Shown piece by piece: positions 20,668 to 27,789 of a stretch of DNA of 64,000 nt. The DNA comes from a phage. Position 1 is the first letter of the stretch. The number at the start of each line of letters is the position of its first letter. The notes beneath the pieces are model-generated. The model did not search any database. It worked only from the letters and a program-made list of their open reading frames with translations, and had not been told where the DNA came from. Location: the sequence record PZ445439.1; one strand, given 5' to 3'. The translations under genes were made by a program, and so were the position numbers.

Positions 20668-21132
20668 TTAAAACGCTCGGTCAGAAAAAGAAATTTGGGT
20701 TTCAAGCCATTCAATGTATTCTGCGGCAGCTTGCATCAAATTTCCTTCGTAGCCATCGTTATTTTCTTGTGAAGCTAATTTAGCTAATGCATATGAAATA
20801 CGTTCACCTTGAAAAGCGGCTTTAGGCTTCTGGGCAGCTTGATTAGTTCGTTCTACGACTTCTTCAATTTCACCATTTTCTACTGATTCAGTATTCCACA
20901 AACACCAATACGTAATTGGCTTATCATAGATGTTAATAATCTTTCCATCAGAAAGTTCAATTTCAATAATTCCAGTATCAGGTTCTATATCATCTTCACA
21001 TTCTTTTGCAAGTTCACGAACTTTAAAGACAGTACCTGCACTAAGTTCCGGCCAGTAATTACACAGCCCTTTATCAGCACGATTAATTCTAAACCACTTA
21101 TCTACTGTAATCATGTCCCATCTCCATATCAA
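20668..21132 (-). CDS. pin: Putative protease inhibitor Pin (assigned by position)
   Basis: 154 aa ORF directly after gene 49 as in T4 order. Confidence 0.4.
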   Translation of the reverse strand: MIWRWDMITVDKWFRINRADKGLCNYWPELSAGTVFKVRELAKECEDDIEPDTGIIEIELSDGKIINIYDKPITYWCLWNTESVENGEIEEVVERTNQAAQKPKAAFQGERISYALAKLASQENNDGYEGNLMQAAAEYIEWLETQISFSDRAF

Positions 21133-21237
21133 TTAAGTCATTTATCGTTGGTTCATTATATACTGTTTCTTCATCAGTGTAAACCGGTTCTTCCGGCTCT
21201 GGCTCTACAGTTTCCCATCTAGCCGCCCACCAAGGTT

Positions 21238-21558
21238 TTATAGCGTAATCCATTCTCGTACTGTCTGAGTTACTACACGTTCACGGGGCTCGACTAGTTC
21301 AACAGTCGGAACTGCATAATACCAGTCAGAATGATAAGAACCTGATCGAGATTCATTTACCGCTACATGTACATTATGTTTTGGACTAAAGTAAACGCAC
21401 TGACGATATTGGCATTTACCATCTTGCACCCAATCTTCTATTTCGACAGGTTTAAGATAATCCGAAAAATCGAAATCATAATTTTCTGAAAATGCATCGT
21501 GGTCTTCAATAATTTCACTCAGAACTGCATCAACATCTAATTTATTTTCAATAGTCAT
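21238..21558 (-). CDS. Hypothetical protein
   Basis: 106 aa ORF. Confidence 0.5.
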   Translation of the reverse strand: MTIENKLDVDAVLSEIIEDHDAFSENYDFDFSDYLKPVEIEDWVQDGKCQYRQCVYFSPKHNVHVAVNESRSGSYHSDWYYAVPTVELVEPRERVVTQTVREWITL

Positions 21559-21568
21559 TTGTCACCAC

Positions 21569-21778
21569 TTAATTTCGCAATTTATTAAGTTCTTCATAAT
21601 CAATCCAGGATTCTAATCCTGATGGCAAATCAGATTCAATTTCCCAAAGAAGTTCTTCAATTTTCTGAAGACGATCCAATTCTTCAGCTGGAATAGTAAC
21701 CATTGCCGGAGCTCTTGCTGCACTAATATCGTAAATCATATTTACCCCAGTTTGACCATGCAATCGCCATATTTCCAC
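21569..21778 (-). CDS. Hypothetical protein
   Basis: 69 aa ORF. Confidence 0.45.
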   Translation of the reverse strand: MEIWRLHGQTGVNMIYDISAARAPAMVTIPAEELDRLQKIEELLWEIESDLPSGLESWIDYEELNKLRN

Positions 21779-21957
21779 TTAGAAATAGACTTTTCGCCAT
21801 TAGAATAATAAACTTCGAGTTTAGCACGGTTATTTTTAATTTGAATAACCTTAGCTGTCATCAAAGTTCCATACCCATAGTAAACTGCAACTTCATCACC
21901 TACATATACCGCGCTTCCGCGGTAGTCATGGATATAATCAGTTCCTTCGAGCATCAT
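21742..21957 (-). CDS. Hypothetical protein
   Basis: 71 aa ORF. Confidence 0.45.
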   Translation of the reverse strand: MMLEGTDYIHDYRGSAVYVGDEVAVYYGYGTLMTAKVIQIKNNRAKLEVYYSNGEKSISKWKYGDCMVKLG

Positions 21958-22217
21958 TTAAAGTATTCCCGCAATTGGTCAAATCCACCAATATGACTTC
22001 CATCAGGAGCAAATACCTGAGGCATCGTCAAGCCGATTTGAGTATCACGACCTAGTTTCGTCAGAAGCTCAGCAATTTTCTCATCATCAAAAACACCTTT
22101 TTCCGGCATAATGTTGATAAATTCAAACGGCTGCTTCTTCACGGTCAAAAGACGTTTTGCATTATCGCAATACACACATTTATGGATGTTGCTATCATAA
22201 CCATATACTTTAAACAT
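21954..22217 (-). CDS. nrdC: Thioredoxin/glutaredoxin NrdC
   Basis: 87 aa; CVYC active site. Confidence 0.9.
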
Positions 22218-22476
22218 AATATTCCTTAATTCCTAGTACTTGTTTAAAAGTCTCGTCGTAATCAAGACTTTGGCCCGTTTGTTCTTTATGTTTGTATATA
22301 ATATCACTTACTTCTGATAGCATATTTTTATATGAACGAGTTAAAGCAGATTTAAGCACGCTGTATCTATCAGGAAATTTACCATGTTCATTATAATAAG
22401 CTATTGCTAATTCACGGACTGCCTTTTCAGCAGCCTCCATATATTCTTTACGCTTGGTCATTTTCTTCTCGGTCAA
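22210..22476 (-). CDS. Hypothetical protein
   Basis: 88 aa ORF. Confidence 0.5.
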
Positions 22477-22765
22477 ATCGGTGTTTACAATGGCGACATT
22501 TATAACGAAGATTACTATTCTGCCAATGAACTAATTGTACCTGTTCAGTGCCGCACTTTGGGCAATTAGGAATATTCTTAGAAGCTCTTTCACGTCGTTC
22601 AACCATGGCCATAATAGCATCCCATGCTGGAGGTTTAAAATCTAAATCGTCGCAACCATGAATCTTTCCACGCATTTCCATATCATCTTCCTCACCAGCC
22701 ATAATAATTTTAATTAAACTGGAATTACTTGAAGCTGCGATGTCTTCTAATAAACGCTTTTTCAT
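22448..22765 (-). CDS. Zinc-ribbon protein
   Basis: CPKC...CRHC pair of Cys-x2-Cys. Confidence 0.5.
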
Positions 22766-23691
22766 TTCAATACCTCGATGGCATTACGTAAACCATTTGC
22801 TTTGGCGGTTAAAGCCTTAAGAACTTTAGTATGCTCTTCAATTTGTTTTTCAACTTCAGCCAAACGTACATTGAGATATTCACGTTCTTCGCTCAGATTA
22901 TCAACCTTTTCTACTTTAGGTTCTTTTATAACTGACTTATATGTATTAGGGTTCTTCAGTTTAATTAGAATGCGTGAACTATATAACATTGAACCATTAT
23001 CTTCGGTTTCGTCATACATTTCTACTACGTCCATGATTTTTAACATCATGCGAAGTTTATAAGACAACGAACGAATAGTTTTGTTGTGCTTATTAATTTC
23101 TTTAGCTGTCATGATGCCGAGATTACGTGAGTAATAATAAGGAACCTGGATATTAATTAATACTGATGAACCACCTGGCTTGTGTGTTACTTCATCAGCA
23201 ATAACCCAGTCCTTAACATGAACTGTATTTGTACGATCATCGCCCGCGGTAAATAGTTTACGAGCATGCTTAAAAAGCATATTCACTTGGTCATTGAATT
23301 GACAAGCAAATTTATCAGCAAATTTAGTTTCAGGAATGGTAGATAACCAATCAGCCAAATGGGTCTTTTTAACATCATTAACAATAGTAAATTCAACCAA
23401 ATCGGTTATAGATGTCTCAGATTTAATGAAGCTCGGCTTCATAAAGTTTTTAATGTTCTCATGAGCTACAGTAGAAGATAACATACGAGAACGTTTAAAC
23501 CATTCAAGCAAATTTCCTAACGAATGAGAATAAGCATTCTGAGTATCTTTACAGATATGATTTTCCTGTCCAACATATTGAAGGAAATCACGAAGAATAT
23601 TATTAACTACTGCTCTGTGTCCTATCTGATAATTGCGATGTTTAGTAATAAGACTGTTAAAATAATCAATATAATGTTTACGAGTTTTCAT
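22762..23691 (-). CDS. Paralog-family protein with C-terminal coiled coil (member 1 of 4)
   Basis: 309 aa; C-terminal heptad-rich tail. Confidence 0.6.
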   Translation of the reverse strand: MKTRKHYIDYFNSLITKHRNYQIGHRAVVNNILRDFLQYVGQENHICKDTQNAYSHSLGNLLEWFKRSRMLSSTVAHENIKNFMKPSFIKSETSITDLVEFTIVNDVKKTHLADWLSTIPETKFADKFACQFNDQVNMLFKHARKLFTAGDDRTNTVHVKDWVIADEVTHKPGGSSVLINIQVPYYYSRNLGIMTAKEINKHNKTIRSLSYKLRMMLKIMDVVEMYDETEDNGSMLYSSRILIKLKNPNTYKSVIKEPKVEKVDNLSEEREYLNVRLAEVEKQIEEHTKVLKALTAKANGLRNAIEVLK

Positions 23692-23745
23692 ATTCTTCTC
23701 ACTTAGTTAATGATTTATGCTCCAAGCCATCCTTGGCTTTAAATT

Positions 23746-24747
23746 TTACTTAATTAACTGTAAAGCTTGTTCAAGACGATCAAGACGATTAACAGATTCT
23801 TCCCAAATCCTTTTAGCCTGTTCATATTCTTTCTGCGCTTTATTAGAAATTTCTAGAACTTCTTTATAAGCTTTTTCTAGTGCAATAACTTCTGGACGAA
23901 TTTCTACCGGTTCGGGTGAATCATCAAGACATTCCATTAGTTCCTCAAGAGTAGTTTCTTCTTTAGGAGTATTCACAATTTCCTCGCATTTTTGTTGATA
24001 AATTTCTTTATCAGTCGGTGAGTACGCGCATTTCACTTCACGAAGGCTAATTATAATTTTATATCCTTCCCAACCACATATATTTTTGAAAGGATACGTA
24101 TGAATACTTTTTACAGTTTCCATACAGCCCAAAGCCGCCTCTAACTGATGGGTTATAGTACTAGCAATTGAGAAAAATTTATTAATATTCTTTTGGTTAA
24201 CTTCCGGTGTAAAAAATCCATAATTCACAAAAATAGCTACTTTATTTTTATCAAGCTCATATTCTTTTACGATAATCATATCAGAAGCTAAAGGATGAAT
24301 TTGACGATAATCACCATAACATAATTTAGAAGCTGATTTTAAAATTTGTCCTTTAAAAAGTCTGAAATTACTAATCCAACGACGAGTAAAAATATTCTCA
24401 GGGTCTTCTTTATTATTAAGATGATAAGAATTAACATCACCGAACCAATTATATCCTACTACATCTTTGGTTCGTTTAATTTCTTTCCCAAATTTACCAA
24501 AAATATCCCGATTAACCAAATATGAAAGAAGACGAGACCCTTTAAAGGTTTCCTTAATATCATCTTTATCTACACGGCTAGAAATTTTACAAACTTCATG
24601 AATAAATTTACTTGAAGAAACTATACTTGCATCAATACTATTGAGCCATTGATTGATAATAGAAAGAACACCGTGATGACTAGACATGGGTTTAACTTTA
24701 TCATCAATAACGCTATTGAATGATTTGATATATTCGTTACGAGTCAT
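23746..24747 (-). CDS. Paralog-family protein with C-terminal coiled coil (member 2)
   Basis: Start set at MTRNEY downstream of the early promoter; shares RRWISNFRLFKGQILKSASKL-like block with member 3. Confidence 0.6.
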   Translation of the reverse strand: MTRNEYIKSFNSVIDDKVKPMSSHHGVLSIINQWLNSIDASIVSSSKFIHEVCKISSRVDKDDIKETFKGSRLLSYLVNRDIFGKFGKEIKRTKDVVGYNWFGDVNSYHLNNKEDPENIFTRRWISNFRLFKGQILKSASKLCYGDYRQIHPLASDMIIVKEYELDKNKVAIFVNYGFFTPEVNQKNINKFFSIASTITHQLEAALGCMETVKSIHTYPFKNICGWEGYKIIISLREVKCAYSPTDKEIYQQKCEEIVNTPKEETTLEELMECLDDSPEPVEIRPEVIALEKAYKEVLEISNKAQKEYEQAKRIWEESVNRLDRLEQALQLIK

Positions 24748-24774
24748 AATAATCTCCTCAGTAGAAAGTAAGAA

Positions 24775-24804
24775 CATTATACCACATCCTTGTGGCAAAG
24801 TAAA
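24775..24804 (-). promoter_or_regulatory. Early promoter (-35 GTTTAC, extended -10 TGGTATAAT)
   Basis: Between paralog members 3 and 2. Confidence 0.55.
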
Positions 24805-25833
24805 CTAGTTCAGTGCATTTAGTGCATTGTTCAGTTTAGAACGTTGTTTTGTCAGATTTTGAACCCTTGACTGTGCTTGTTCTAACACCTTTTCAGCTTC
24901 TAGCATTTCATTAGTTGCTTTAACAAGTTCATCATCTACTGCTTTAAGAGACTTCTCAATCGCATCGGCGTGCCATTTTTCAACAGGTTTAAGACTCGGA
25001 TTTTCAACAGGAAGAAAATTCACTTTATTGAATTTCCATGCATCATTATTACCTGAACTATACATCCAAAATTTAGGATCGTTTGATAAGTAATTAGATA
25101 AATTTAAGTTATAGTTATCTTGCACTTCCTGTTTTTTCTCTTGCGGGACTTCGTCCTTTCTCAAATAATCATATTTAAATGAAACGACCATATCAAGTTC
25201 ATATGTTGTCGTATCTAATTTAAATCGTTCGAAATGCTGCGAAATCTTAGACTGAACAGCGGAAACAACATCCATATACTTAAATGCTTCTGTCAATTGT
25301 GATTTAAGGCATTCGCAAATTGAAAGAGAATTTTTTGTATTAGGTTTAAAGCTAATTCGTGCAGTTCTGTTATTTTCTTTTAATGGTCTTACTTCCATCT
25401 GAAGAGTATAACCATCAAATTTCAGATTCTTTAAGTTAATGTCAGAGCCTTTTAATCGACTAGCAGTAGACAAAATTTGCTTTAATTGTCTACGGAACAG
25501 AGCAATAAATCTCCATTCAATACGATAATGATTTGGATTGAAAAATCCAGATGATAAATCGACCTTACTTTGACCAACGCCTTGAACAAATAGAGGATTT
25601 TTATAATCAATAGTTTTACAGAAATCAACGAGTTGCTCGCGAGCAGTCATTTGTGTAATATACCCTGCTTTACTAAAATGACGTAACCATTCACTGCTAT
25701 TCAAATGTTTAAAGGCATGAATGGAACAATTAACTTTACCAAGGTCTAAATTATTTTCGCACAAAAATGTCATAGCATCACGAGTATAACTGGCATTACG
25801 AACAATATCTTCAATTTGAGAACGAGTTTTCAT
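24805..25833 (-). CDS. Paralog-family protein with C-terminal coiled coil (member 3)
   Basis: 342 aa. Confidence 0.6.
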   Translation of the reverse strand: MKTRSQIEDIVRNASYTRDAMTFLCENNLDLGKVNCSIHAFKHLNSSEWLRHFSKAGYITQMTAREQLVDFCKTIDYKNPLFVQGVGQSKVDLSSGFFNPNHYRIEWRFIALFRRQLKQILSTASRLKGSDINLKNLKFDGYTLQMEVRPLKENNRTARISFKPNTKNSLSICECLKSQLTEAFKYMDVVSAVQSKISQHFERFKLDTTTYELDMVVSFKYDYLRKDEVPQEKKQEVQDNYNLNLSNYLSNDPKFWMYSSGNNDAWKFNKVNFLPVENPSLKPVEKWHADAIEKSLKAVDDELVKATNEMLEAEKVLEQAQSRVQNLTKQRSKLNNALNALN

Positions 25834-25841
25834 AGTATTCC

Positions 25842-26753
25842 TTAAGATTTAAGTAAATCAACAATTTTAATTAACTTTTCACGCTCAGATTTAGCTTTAC
25901 TACTCAGTCCAGATAGTCTAAAAATTTCATCATCATATTGTTGAATAGAAATATTCAGCTCTTCAATCTGCTTATTAAAATAATCAATTTGTTCAGAATG
26001 TTTTTCGTTACTACGAACTGGTACAGGTTTTGTAGGCAATTCAATTGAACTGGATTCATCCGGGCGATAAATTAAAATACAACTTGAACCAATTGGACAT
26101 TTTGCACCAGATGAATATTCTAATGTTCCAGATTCTTTTAAAACTTCAAAAGCTAAACAGAGATGATGGCCCATATTAACATAATCCGTAGAGCGAGCTC
26201 TGACGTAATAATCATCTCCACGAATACTAAATTTAAAACATTTAAGGTCTTCTGTATTATTAGTTTTAAAAATCATTTGTTTATCTAGACCTTTAGCCAA
26301 TCGAGCGCCTAACGCTAATAATCGTCGTTGATTTTCCCATAAATCCGCAATCATTTGGTCGAATGATAATTTCGGCATTAGTCGGCCATAAAGGTCGTAT
26401 CCTTTATTATAATTGCGAAGGATTTCACTCGCGTTAATACGAGACAATGCTCCAATTTTATTAAGGGCTTTCATAATGCGATTAGATAAACTCATTCCAG
26501 ATCCGTTTGTTCGCTGTAAATGTTTTTCTAATCCAAACCCAATATCAACTTTAAACTTATCTAAAATTTCAGCATGAACATCTCTGTCAATAACATTCAA
26601 ATCCAAAGTTGAGTTAAATCTATGAAAAAATTTATCTGGCTCTCCACGACGAAATACAGTCCATTCATTCATCATTTTTTTATTAACTAAAGATTTAATT
26701 ACTGCATTGACATTATTAATTACTACTGACATATTTTCCTCACTCAATTTCAA
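25842..26753 (-). CDS. Paralog-family protein with C-terminal coiled coil (member 4)
   Basis: 303 aa. Confidence 0.6.
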   Translation of the reverse strand: MKLSEENMSVVINNVNAVIKSLVNKKMMNEWTVFRRGEPDKFFHRFNSTLDLNVIDRDVHAEILDKFKVDIGFGLEKHLQRTNGSGMSLSNRIMKALNKIGALSRINASEILRNYNKGYDLYGRLMPKLSFDQMIADLWENQRRLLALGARLAKGLDKQMIFKTNNTEDLKCFKFSIRGDDYYVRARSTDYVNMGHHLCLAFEVLKESGTLEYSSGAKCPIGSSCILIYRPDESSSIELPTKPVPVRSNEKHSEQIDYFNKQIEELNISIQQYDDEIFRLSGLSSKAKSEREKLIKIVDLLKS

Positions 26754-27147: not shown

Positions 27148-27176
27148 AATAATCTCAATTAAAAGGGCTTAGAACC

Positions 27177-27203
27177 ATTATACCATCCTTGGTATAAAGC
27201 GGT
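27177..27203 (-). promoter_or_regulatory. Candidate middle (MotA-type) promoter: CCGCTTTA box plus TGGTATAAT
   Basis: MotA-box-like CGCTT about 14 nt upstream of extended -10. Confidence 0.35.
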
Positions 27204-27730
27204 TATGCGAGTACCGTCTTTAACCGTTCTTCAAACTTCCGAAGAGTATTTTGGCGTTCAGCTCTTTGCTTTTTGTAAGTTTCAATACGCTCTGAAATGA
27301 GAGTGTATCGTTCATTCACTGATTCTTTCATAAAATCAGGAATTTCACGAGAAGCTTTAATCTCGTCAAATTTATCAATAACAGCTTGCTCTTCAGCAAT
27401 TAAGTTATCATACATTAAAATATCTTTCTTGATGAACTCAATATCTTCTTGAGTTACACGAGATAATTTAGATGCTTTATCCTTTTTGTACTGTTCGTTA
27501 GTATCACGAGACCAATGTAATATACGATTTTTATTCGTATTCTTGTAAATTTCTACAATACCAATCTCATCAATAATAACGATCCAATTCCAACGGGATT
27601 TGTAAATTTGTCCTCCATCAACAGTGATTTCACCTCCGATTGAGATGTCATTAAAGAACTTGCTTTGTGCTTCAGATTTAAATTTACCATCGTTGTAATT
27701 TACCAAGTTGAAAATATCTTTAGCATTCAT
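27203..27730 (-). CDS. Hypothetical protein
   Basis: Start set at MNAKDIF; the longer track ORF reads through the promoter repeat. Confidence 0.55.
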   Translation of the reverse strand: MNAKDIFNLVNYNDGKFKSEAQSKFFNDISIGGEITVDGGQIYKSRWNWIVIIDEIGIVEIYKNTNKNRILHWSRDTNEQYKKDKASKLSRVTQEDIEFIKKDILMYDNLIAEEQAVIDKFDEIKASREIPDFMKESVNERYTLISERIETYKKQRAERQNTLRKFEERLKTVLA

Positions 27731-27757: not shown

Positions 27758-27789
27758 TATAGTACCACAGAGGAACAGTCTTGTAAACA
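27758..27789 (-). promoter_or_regulatory. Early promoter (-35 GTTTACA, -10 TACTAT)
   Basis: Repeat-family member. Confidence 0.6.

Follow-up and report, generated by a model that had tools for sequence, protein, structure and literature searches.

The 64,000-nucleotide stretch of phage DNA analysed here (sequence record PZ445439.1; hereafter the window) raises the question of whether four neighbouring genes, whose products all end in a heptad-rich helix, form one protein family or are unrelated proteins, and of what they may contribute to the phage. The window phage is a Tequatrovirus (T4-like), and over the 4.8 kb around the gene array it shares 97.5% identity with Escherichia phage JoYop and 94% with hundreds of Tequatrovirus genomes (megablast). 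All real genes of the region lie on the minus strand, where four consecutive open reading frames (ORFs) were identified as the orthologs of T4 nrdC.3, nrdC.4, nrdC.5 and nrdC.6 (tblastn, BLASTP and the T4 reference annotation); nrdC.2 lies on one side of them and nrdC.7, which encodes a small membrane protein, on the other. The T4 reference annotation labels each of them 'conserved hypothetical protein'. Here, we present evidence from sequence profiles and structure models that the four are true but very deep tandem paralogs belonging to one Straboviridae-wide superfamily. We further propose, with a probability of roughly 0.6, that the array encodes accessory counter-defence proteins within an anti-defence island, the nrdC.5 product acting against the defence protein Dsr1 and the other three being candidates against other systems or variants.

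Four adjacent genes with heptad-rich tails

The four genes, abbreviated A to D in the order nrdC.3 to nrdC.6, are as follows (lengths in amino acids, aa).

22762..23691, minus strand: A, nrdC.3 ortholog, 309 aa; full-length match to phrog_1435 (E 2e-113)
23746..24747, minus strand: B, nrdC.4 ortholog, 333 aa; match to phrog_1435 (E 2e-166), homologs pre-annotated PF26897
24805..25833, minus strand: C, nrdC.5 ortholog, 342 aa, DUF7235; full-length match to PF23882 (E 3e-118), 92% identical to T4 nrdC.5
25842..26732, minus strand: D, nrdC.6 ortholog, 296 aa; full-length match to phrog_2257 (E 2e-150), homologs pre-annotated PF26899

A first-pass annotation of the window had listed consecutive ORFs of 309, 333, 342 and 303 aa. 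All four are present, and only the last length needs revision: D most likely begins at the ATG at 26732 (296 aa) rather than at the TTG at 26753 (303 aa), because its orthologs in T4 and other genera (four genera) begin there, with MSVVINN or MSQAIN, and GAGG lies upstream. The ATG start of B (333 aa) is backed by a conserved GAGGAG Shine-Dalgarno sequence and by an MTR start kept in three genera. When the four proteins were scanned against NCBIfam and Pfam, DUF7235 alone reached its cut-off, its match covering residues 1-342 of C at 395 bits against a cut-off of 30. As a side observation, residues 30-86 and 92-134 of nrdC.3 gave sub-threshold matches to the SAM-like N-terminal domain found in recombinases of the XerD/XerC type (NCBIfam E 0.002, Pfam E 0.09) and to a PHL domain (Pfam E 1.5e-4, 22.3 bits against a cut-off of 23.7).

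The heptad-rich tails reported in the first-pass annotation are clearly there. The a and d positions of the four tails are hydrophobic at a fraction of 0.71-0.93, compared with 0.17-0.23 at the other positions, and the tails reach heptad scores of 0.49-0.76, compared with 0.24 +/- 0.11 for 49-residue windows taken from the heads. The window contains 70 ORFs that do not overlap and have 100 aa or more. When a tail was defined by a heptad score of at least 0.49 and at most 1 Pro/Gly, exactly 4 of them qualified, and these were the four neighbours nrdC.3-nrdC.6, so that the clustering of such tails in adjacent genes is far beyond chance. In the AlphaFold2 (AF2) models the heptad periodicity falls in one long C-terminal helix of B (residues 285-332) and in two helices of D (246-272 and 278-295).

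22765..22911, minus strand: heptad tail of A, 49 aa; heptad score 0.66
23749..23895, minus strand: heptad tail of B, 49 aa; heptad score 0.49, a single helix (residues 285-332) in the AF2 model
24808..24954, minus strand: heptad tail of C, 49 aa; heptad score 0.76, no Pro/Gly
25845..25997, minus strand: heptad tail of D, 51 aa, with a break at GLSS; heptad score 0.61, helices 246-272 and 278-295 in the AF2 model

What the tails have in common is their heptad character, their extreme C-terminal position and a loose end motif, [RK]xxLxxA[LI]xxLK. Comparison of tail-only profiles between the paralogs gave E values of 1e-3 to 0.2, which is not significant, and we rejected the tails as a conserved sequence module on these values. 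Within families the tails are strongly kept, with a nonsynonymous divergence (dN) of about 0 in the tails of B and D among Tequatrovirus. The earlier description of a shared, conserved oligomerisation tail thus holds for the architecture, but is wrong if taken to mean that the sequence is conserved.

Similarity beyond the coiled coil

One explanation of these tails is that the four proteins are unrelated and have nothing in common except a generic C-terminal coiled coil and chance adjacency. Pairwise BLASTP is consistent with it, detecting only the A-B pair (24% identity over 230 residues), as are the non-significant tail profiles and an exhaustive HMMER search that does not join the families. 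The family databases likewise split the array, PHROGs grouping A with B but giving C and D a family each, and Pfam and the database pre-annotations using three families (DUF7235/PF23882 for C, PF26897 for B and PF26899 for D).

Profile-profile comparison (hhalign) of family alignments, built from database homologs and from loci of five genera, argues against this explanation. A and B are joined at 98% probability (E 1e-13), and the A+B profile matches C at full length with 84% (E 8e-6) over 225-238 collinear columns, which start near residue 68 of B (53 of C) and reach the C-terminal end of either protein; an independent run on smaller alignments gave 66% (E 5.8e-5) over 242 columns. With the last 55 residues cut, the heads of A+B and C still align with a score of 32.9. 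None of 40 column shuffles (14.6 +/- 2.1) and none of 30 block shuffles (22.8 +/- 2.8, maximum 31.8) reached this score, and a reversed profile gave 14.1. Matched directly with A+B or C, D gives marginal values (E 0.02-0.09), and the three pairwise alignments agree in register; matched with the merged A+B+C profile, it gives 91% (E 1.3e-6) over B 62-150 and D 84-153. Because this collinear similarity beyond the coiled coil exceeds the shuffles, the four are not mere coiled-coil look-alikes.

A helix motif, conserved inside each family, is common to all four proteins.

23236..23283, minus strand: helix motif NMLFKHARKLFTAGDD in A (motif comparison)
24304..24351, minus strand: helix motif GQILKSASKLCYGDYR in B (motif comparison and profile alignment)
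25435..25482, minus strand: helix motif KQILSTASRLKGSDIN in C (motif comparison and profile alignment)
26274..26321, minus strand: helix motif LLALGARLAKGLDKQM in D (motif comparison and profile alignment)

The internal block that the first-pass annotation had recognised in its second and third members lies inside the significant profile alignment, and a version of it occurs in all four proteins. The annotation had also proposed paralogy, to be given up if nothing but a generic coiled coil was alike; the similarity reaches well outside the coiled coil, and paralogy stands. The divergent heads are homologous and not unrelated.

Predicted structures of B and D (AF2, predicted local distance difference test scores of 83.5 and 74) agree with the profiles. 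The alignment of A+B+C with D, made from sequence only, places the secondary structures of the two models in register with 81% agreement, compared with 41 +/- 12% for shifted controls (n=173, maximum 61%), none of which reached 81%. Downstream of the aligned part the models are also alike, running through strand, strand, helix, strand, strand and linker to the tail helix. In a Foldseek search of predicted viral structures (BFVD), both models matched, at approximately full length, the same uncharacterised proteins of 304-335 aa in the following phages.

Enterobacter phage IME523: E 4e-8 with B, 1e-6 with D
Pectobacterium phage PM2: E 6e-8 with B, 6e-6 with D
Klebsiella phage Mineola: E 1e-7 with B, 2e-4 with D
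Yersinia phage fHe-Yen9-01: E 5e-5 with B, 4e-4 with D

Phage fPS-65 adds a further match of the B model, to its nrdC.3 protein. Acinetobacter phage Acj61, a member of another subfamily, has a match for each model, E5E4A1 (330 aa) for B and E5E4A2 (304 aa) for D. These are the products of the adjacent genes Acj61p120 and p121, located just beyond nrdC with the 268-aa ORF p118 between, and both carry helical tails that end much like those of T4. Given this tandem pair beside nrdC, the family, its tandem layout and its position near nrdC predate the split of the Straboviridae subfamilies. Relatives were found in phages of Acinetobacter, Klebsiella, Pectobacterium, Erwinia, Serratia and Yersinia.

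The four proteins would thus share one architecture. A domain of helices at the N-terminus is followed by a conserved helix-helix motif, which leads to an alpha/beta core with the predicted order helix-helix-short helix, two strands, helix, two strands; a poorly ordered linker then connects the core to the heptad helix, some 45-50 residues long, at the C-terminus. With collinear profile matches outside the tails exceeding all shuffles, the B and D secondary structures in register, structural neighbours common to B and D that include the syntenic tandem pair of Acj61, and the helix motif in all four, we consider the explanation by unrelated proteins largely refuted and very improbable. Profiles and models together indicate that nrdC.3-nrdC.6 are distant members of a single superfamily. 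When the PDB was searched by sequence with C and with the A+B and D profiles, only noise came back (caspase-3 at E above 0.3, designed helical repeats), and a scan of IMG/VR with the C alignment found 5 near-identical loci only.

A candidate counter-defence role

The functional reading starts from nrdC.5. Dsr1 is a sirtuin defence protein of E. coli ECOR17 (PMC9391042). According to Srikant et al. (eLife 2022, PMC9391042), a T4 clone with compensatory deletions failed on ECOR17 unless the host dsr1 was disrupted, and nrdC.5 expressed alone restored plating on MG1655 carrying dsr1. C is the ortholog of T4 NrdC.5 (DUF7235, PF23882), with a full-length match at the same position, and its 92% identity suggests that it keeps the anti-Dsr1 activity. 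A, B and D would be distant paralogs of the same architecture, which differ from NrdC.5 in having no match to PF23882 at E <= 1 and less than 20-25% identity to C. The earlier idea of host-target binders fits the restoration of infection by T4 nrdC.5 on a dsr1 host (PMC9391042), which concerns one member only.

The neighbourhood points in the same direction. The product gp49.2 inhibits OLD (PMC13096335), nrdC.1 inhibits Septu and Bas37_0203 inhibits Druantia III (both bioRxiv 10.1101/2025.11.20.689424); judged from its length of 528 bp and its place two genes past the nrdC.6 ortholog, Bas37_0203 is the nrdC.8 ortholog. These anti-OLD, anti-Septu and anti-Druantia III factors resemble the array proteins in belonging to the same island and in being early, accessory and dispensable on laboratory hosts, and gp49.2, NrdC.1 and NrdC.8 differ from them in their unrelated sequence. 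In T4 transposon libraries of the study reporting Bas37_0203, nrdC.3, nrdC.4, nrdC.5 and nrdC.6 were all non-essential on laboratory E. coli. We infer that nrdC.3, nrdC.4 and nrdC.6 are anti-defence genes as well.

Mechanistically, and in analogy to other inhibitors made of a single protein, each of the four would be a counter-defence protein whose globular head binds a particular host immune protein and whose tail oligomerises it, giving avidity for oligomeric immune sensors in the manner of a multivalent inhibitor. The genes are accessory and early or middle-transcribed, with one putative early-type promoter inside the array before nrdC.4. Inhibition by direct binding is suggested by analogy with DSAD1 of Bacillus phage SPbeta, which inhibits DSR2 by direct binding and occupies its tail-protein-sensing pocket (PMC10973363). 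DSAD1 thus offers a possible precedent for a phage protein neutralising a defence-associated sirtuin by binding, and also for a decoy reading of a tail-terminator-like core. It differs in targeting DSR2 and not Dsr1 and in coming from another phage group, and its likeness to the array is one of analogy only; no relation in sequence or fold was seen, no test aimed at one having been made. For the predicted alpha/beta core, the system compared was that of the tail terminator and tail completion proteins (lambda gpU, SPP1 gp17-like, DUF3168). A more specific version would make the superfamily, throughout Straboviridae, early, coiled-coil-oligomerised mimics of a tail terminator or completion protein. 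Before virion proteins appear, they would fill the sensor sites of immune proteins that recognise structural proteins of phages, Dsr1 in the case of nrdC.5 and further sensors in the case of its paralogs, with different paralogs or alleles tuned to different sensors, much as DSAD1 imitates the tail tube towards DSR2; we regard this version as speculative and decidedly unlikely.

It may also be that only nrdC.5 was recruited to counter-defence and that nrdC.3, nrdC.4 and nrdC.6 serve non-immune phage physiology, such as host takeover or the tuning of nucleic-acid or virion assembly. The three genes are, however, dispensable on laboratory hosts, patchy in presence among close relatives and situated among four proven anti-defence genes, and we consider this explanation rather unlikely.

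Several points weigh against the counter-defence reading of the whole array. Of the four genes, nrdC.5 alone is tied to a defence system by experiment; nrdC.3, nrdC.4 and nrdC.6 are not among the factors found in the accessible part of the published HIDEN-SEQ screens; and literature searches on nrdC.5/Dsr1 or the Pfam names found no later work and no published mechanism. Oligomerisation by the tails is a prediction, and the models are of monomers. The superfamily membership and fold of C come from sequence profiles alone, and D is joined by sequence through the merged profile only, its direct comparison with A+B giving E 0.02-0.04. The exhaustive HMMER search with the A+B profile, for which the family is too diverged, recovered neither the C or D family nor bacterial relatives; its yield of 9 representative clusters among 1.84 billion consisted entirely of T4-like nrdC.3/nrdC.4 types or fragments. 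Finally, the ratio of nonsynonymous to synonymous divergence (dN/dS), from crude pairwise Nei-Gojobori estimates over whole genes against seven Tequatrovirus loci, is 0.06-0.39 and gives no sign of an arms race.

The gene nrdC.8 was also considered as a fifth member and rejected; a KPV15 protein of 175 aa had turned up in the Foldseek list.

27203-27730, minus strand: nrdC.8, 175 aa; charged C-terminal helix, no profile similarity to the four paralogs

Its hhalign comparison with every family profile gave E 0.07-0.4, and its helical, charged C-terminus has a heptad score of 0.30 only.

Some further observations concern the surroundings. Downstream of the array in the direction of transcription (window 20668-22765, minus strand) lie pin, 49.1, the 49.2 ortholog, nrdC, nrdC.1 and nrdC.2. 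The 49.2 ortholog is at 21238-21558 (gp49.2 being the published anti-OLD factor in T6), and the position of T4 49.3 is taken here by two short ORFs of about 70 aa (21569-21957). In its C-terminal part the nrdC.2 protein (105 aa, 22448-22765, minus strand) carries a CxxC...CxxC zinc ribbon; its matches to zinc-ribbon families of Pfam are many but weak, all below cut-off (best E 2.5e-4). In Acj61 (locus L016, 1229-3938), adjacent genes are annotated as nicotinate phosphoribosyltransferase and PRPP synthetase, a pair resembling published phage NAD+ reconstitution pathways that counter NAD-depleting defences.

Turnover, expression and meaning of the array

The composition of the array varies between genera. 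Tequatrovirus has 4 members, Mosigvirus 2 (an nrdC.3 type and a 331-aa nrdC.6 type), Gaprivervirus and Dhakavirus 3 (nrdC.4, an nrdC.5 type of 293-301 aa and nrdC.6) and Acj61 2. Gaprivervirus (L004, 4844-5059) and Dhakavirus (L005, 4856-5071) also carry a hydrophobic ORF of 71 aa between the nrdC.6 and nrdC.5 homologs; Tequatrovirus is without it there and has its membrane protein nrdC.7 on the other side of nrdC.6.

Within nrdC.3, two deep allele classes exist, and the window copy is nearer to Mosigvirus copies (73-77% identity) than to that of T4 (60.6%). Its head has a synonymous divergence (dS) of about 0.15 to one allele class and about 1.1 to the T4 class (compared with loci L001 and L007-L010), and its tail is nearer to the T4 class (dS 0.23 versus 0.65), and the different nearest relatives of head and tail therefore point to recombination between the two parts. 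In phage ACG-C40 (L002, 5805-6216), nrdC.3 to nrdC.5 are lost except for stubs and nrdC.6 is kept; what remains of nrdC.5 is a stub of 68 aa that is not in frame with the tail of nrdC.3. Salmonella phage Manna (L006, 5215-6252) has, in addition to nrdC.3, a fusion gene in which the head of nrdC.6 continues in frame into the linker and tail of nrdC.4, with its junction at a short similar stretch (QQYDDEI in nrdC.6, QQKCEEI in nrdC.4). Among database proteins (P0056 and P0121), one, nrdC.6 of phage Sf25, contains an internal duplication, and another consists of nrdC.5 joined to the C-terminal half of nrdC.3.

By gene, dN/dS is 0.13-0.39 for A, 0.13-0.18 for B (four intact orthologs, with 0.44 for one half-length copy), 0.16-0.23 for C and 0.06-0.15 for D (0.35 against the Manna fusion protein). 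These values lie above those of the flanking genes nrdC.8 to nrdC.10 (0.01-0.10), and the array is therefore under looser constraint than its neighbours. Whole-gene positive selection was rejected at this resolution. A 'diversifying' family, as the first-pass annotation had it, is not shown by these crude estimates, which indicate purifying selection; the turnover is of another kind, in copy number, alleles, deletions and head/tail fusion.

The same annotation had placed an early promoter inside the array, and a promoter-like site is indeed found there.

24776..24804, minus strand: putative early-type sigma-70 promoter, (G)TTTACT-17-TATAAT, with TG before the -10; 10/12 consensus positions plus TG

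It lies immediately behind the stop codon of C, and 28 nt separate it from the ATG of B. In ten loci of Tequatrovirus, Gaprivervirus and Dhakavirus, no variation is seen in its -35 and -10 hexamers, in the GAGGAG ribosome-binding site or in the ATG, while the spacer varies. Since promoter-like sites across the whole region are not above chance (27 versus 26.1), the case for this promoter rests on its position and conservation. Terminator-like matches in the array, located within ORFs or in the promoter spacer, were not taken as terminators.

An exact 10-mer, CCAAGGATGG, occurs twice on the minus strand, both times in intergenic gaps (23727-23736, before nrdC.3, and 27183-27192, before nrdC.7), and its variant CCACAAGGATGTGG at 24780-24793 forms the spacer hairpin of the putative promoter before nrdC.4. 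As a significant repeat it was rejected, because with one mismatch allowed the window holds 4 matches against 1.84 expected; it may be left over from a duplication of upstream regions or belong to the T4 promoter spacer consensus. By reading of the sequence only, CGCTTTA, 12 nt and TATAAT upstream of nrdC.7 (about 27165-27195, minus strand) resemble a MotA-box middle promoter, and GTTTACA-17-TACTAT upstream of nrdC.8 (27759-27787, minus strand) resembles another early promoter.

Adjacent genes on one strand, with one consensus-type promoter seen inside the array, tails of similar length and end motif, and tails almost invariant within B and D (dN about 0), would also suit subunits of one hetero-oligomeric complex joined by the tails, that is, one machine and not independent inhibitors. 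The subsets found in nature argue against it, with two members in Mosigvirus, three in Gaprivervirus and Dhakavirus, nrdC.6 only in ACG-C40 and one fusion plus nrdC.3 in Manna, and the restoration of infection by the deletion clone with plasmid-borne nrdC.5 alone may count against it as well. We hold a single complex to be quite improbable, and independent counter-defence proteins remain our preferred reading.

The interpretation of the first-pass annotation is in sum partly supported. The genes themselves, as T4 ORFs, and the published role of nrdC.5 are already known; the description of the four and their Straboviridae relatives as one family with a common architecture appears to be new. In T4, the best-studied phage, the four genes are still 'conserved hypothetical' and nrdC.5 alone has a phenotype. 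We judge the finding to be of moderate interest, useful and testable rather than astonishing. The domain map, with its variable head and predicted oligomerising tail, can guide truncations or swaps, and DUF7235, PF26897 and PF26899 are suggested to belong in one Pfam clan. Linking the four would turn one anti-Dsr1 factor into a family with three further candidate members per phage, and many more in other genera, and would add to the view that the gp49-nrdC region is an anti-defence island, with A, B and D as concrete candidate inhibitors of other defence systems.

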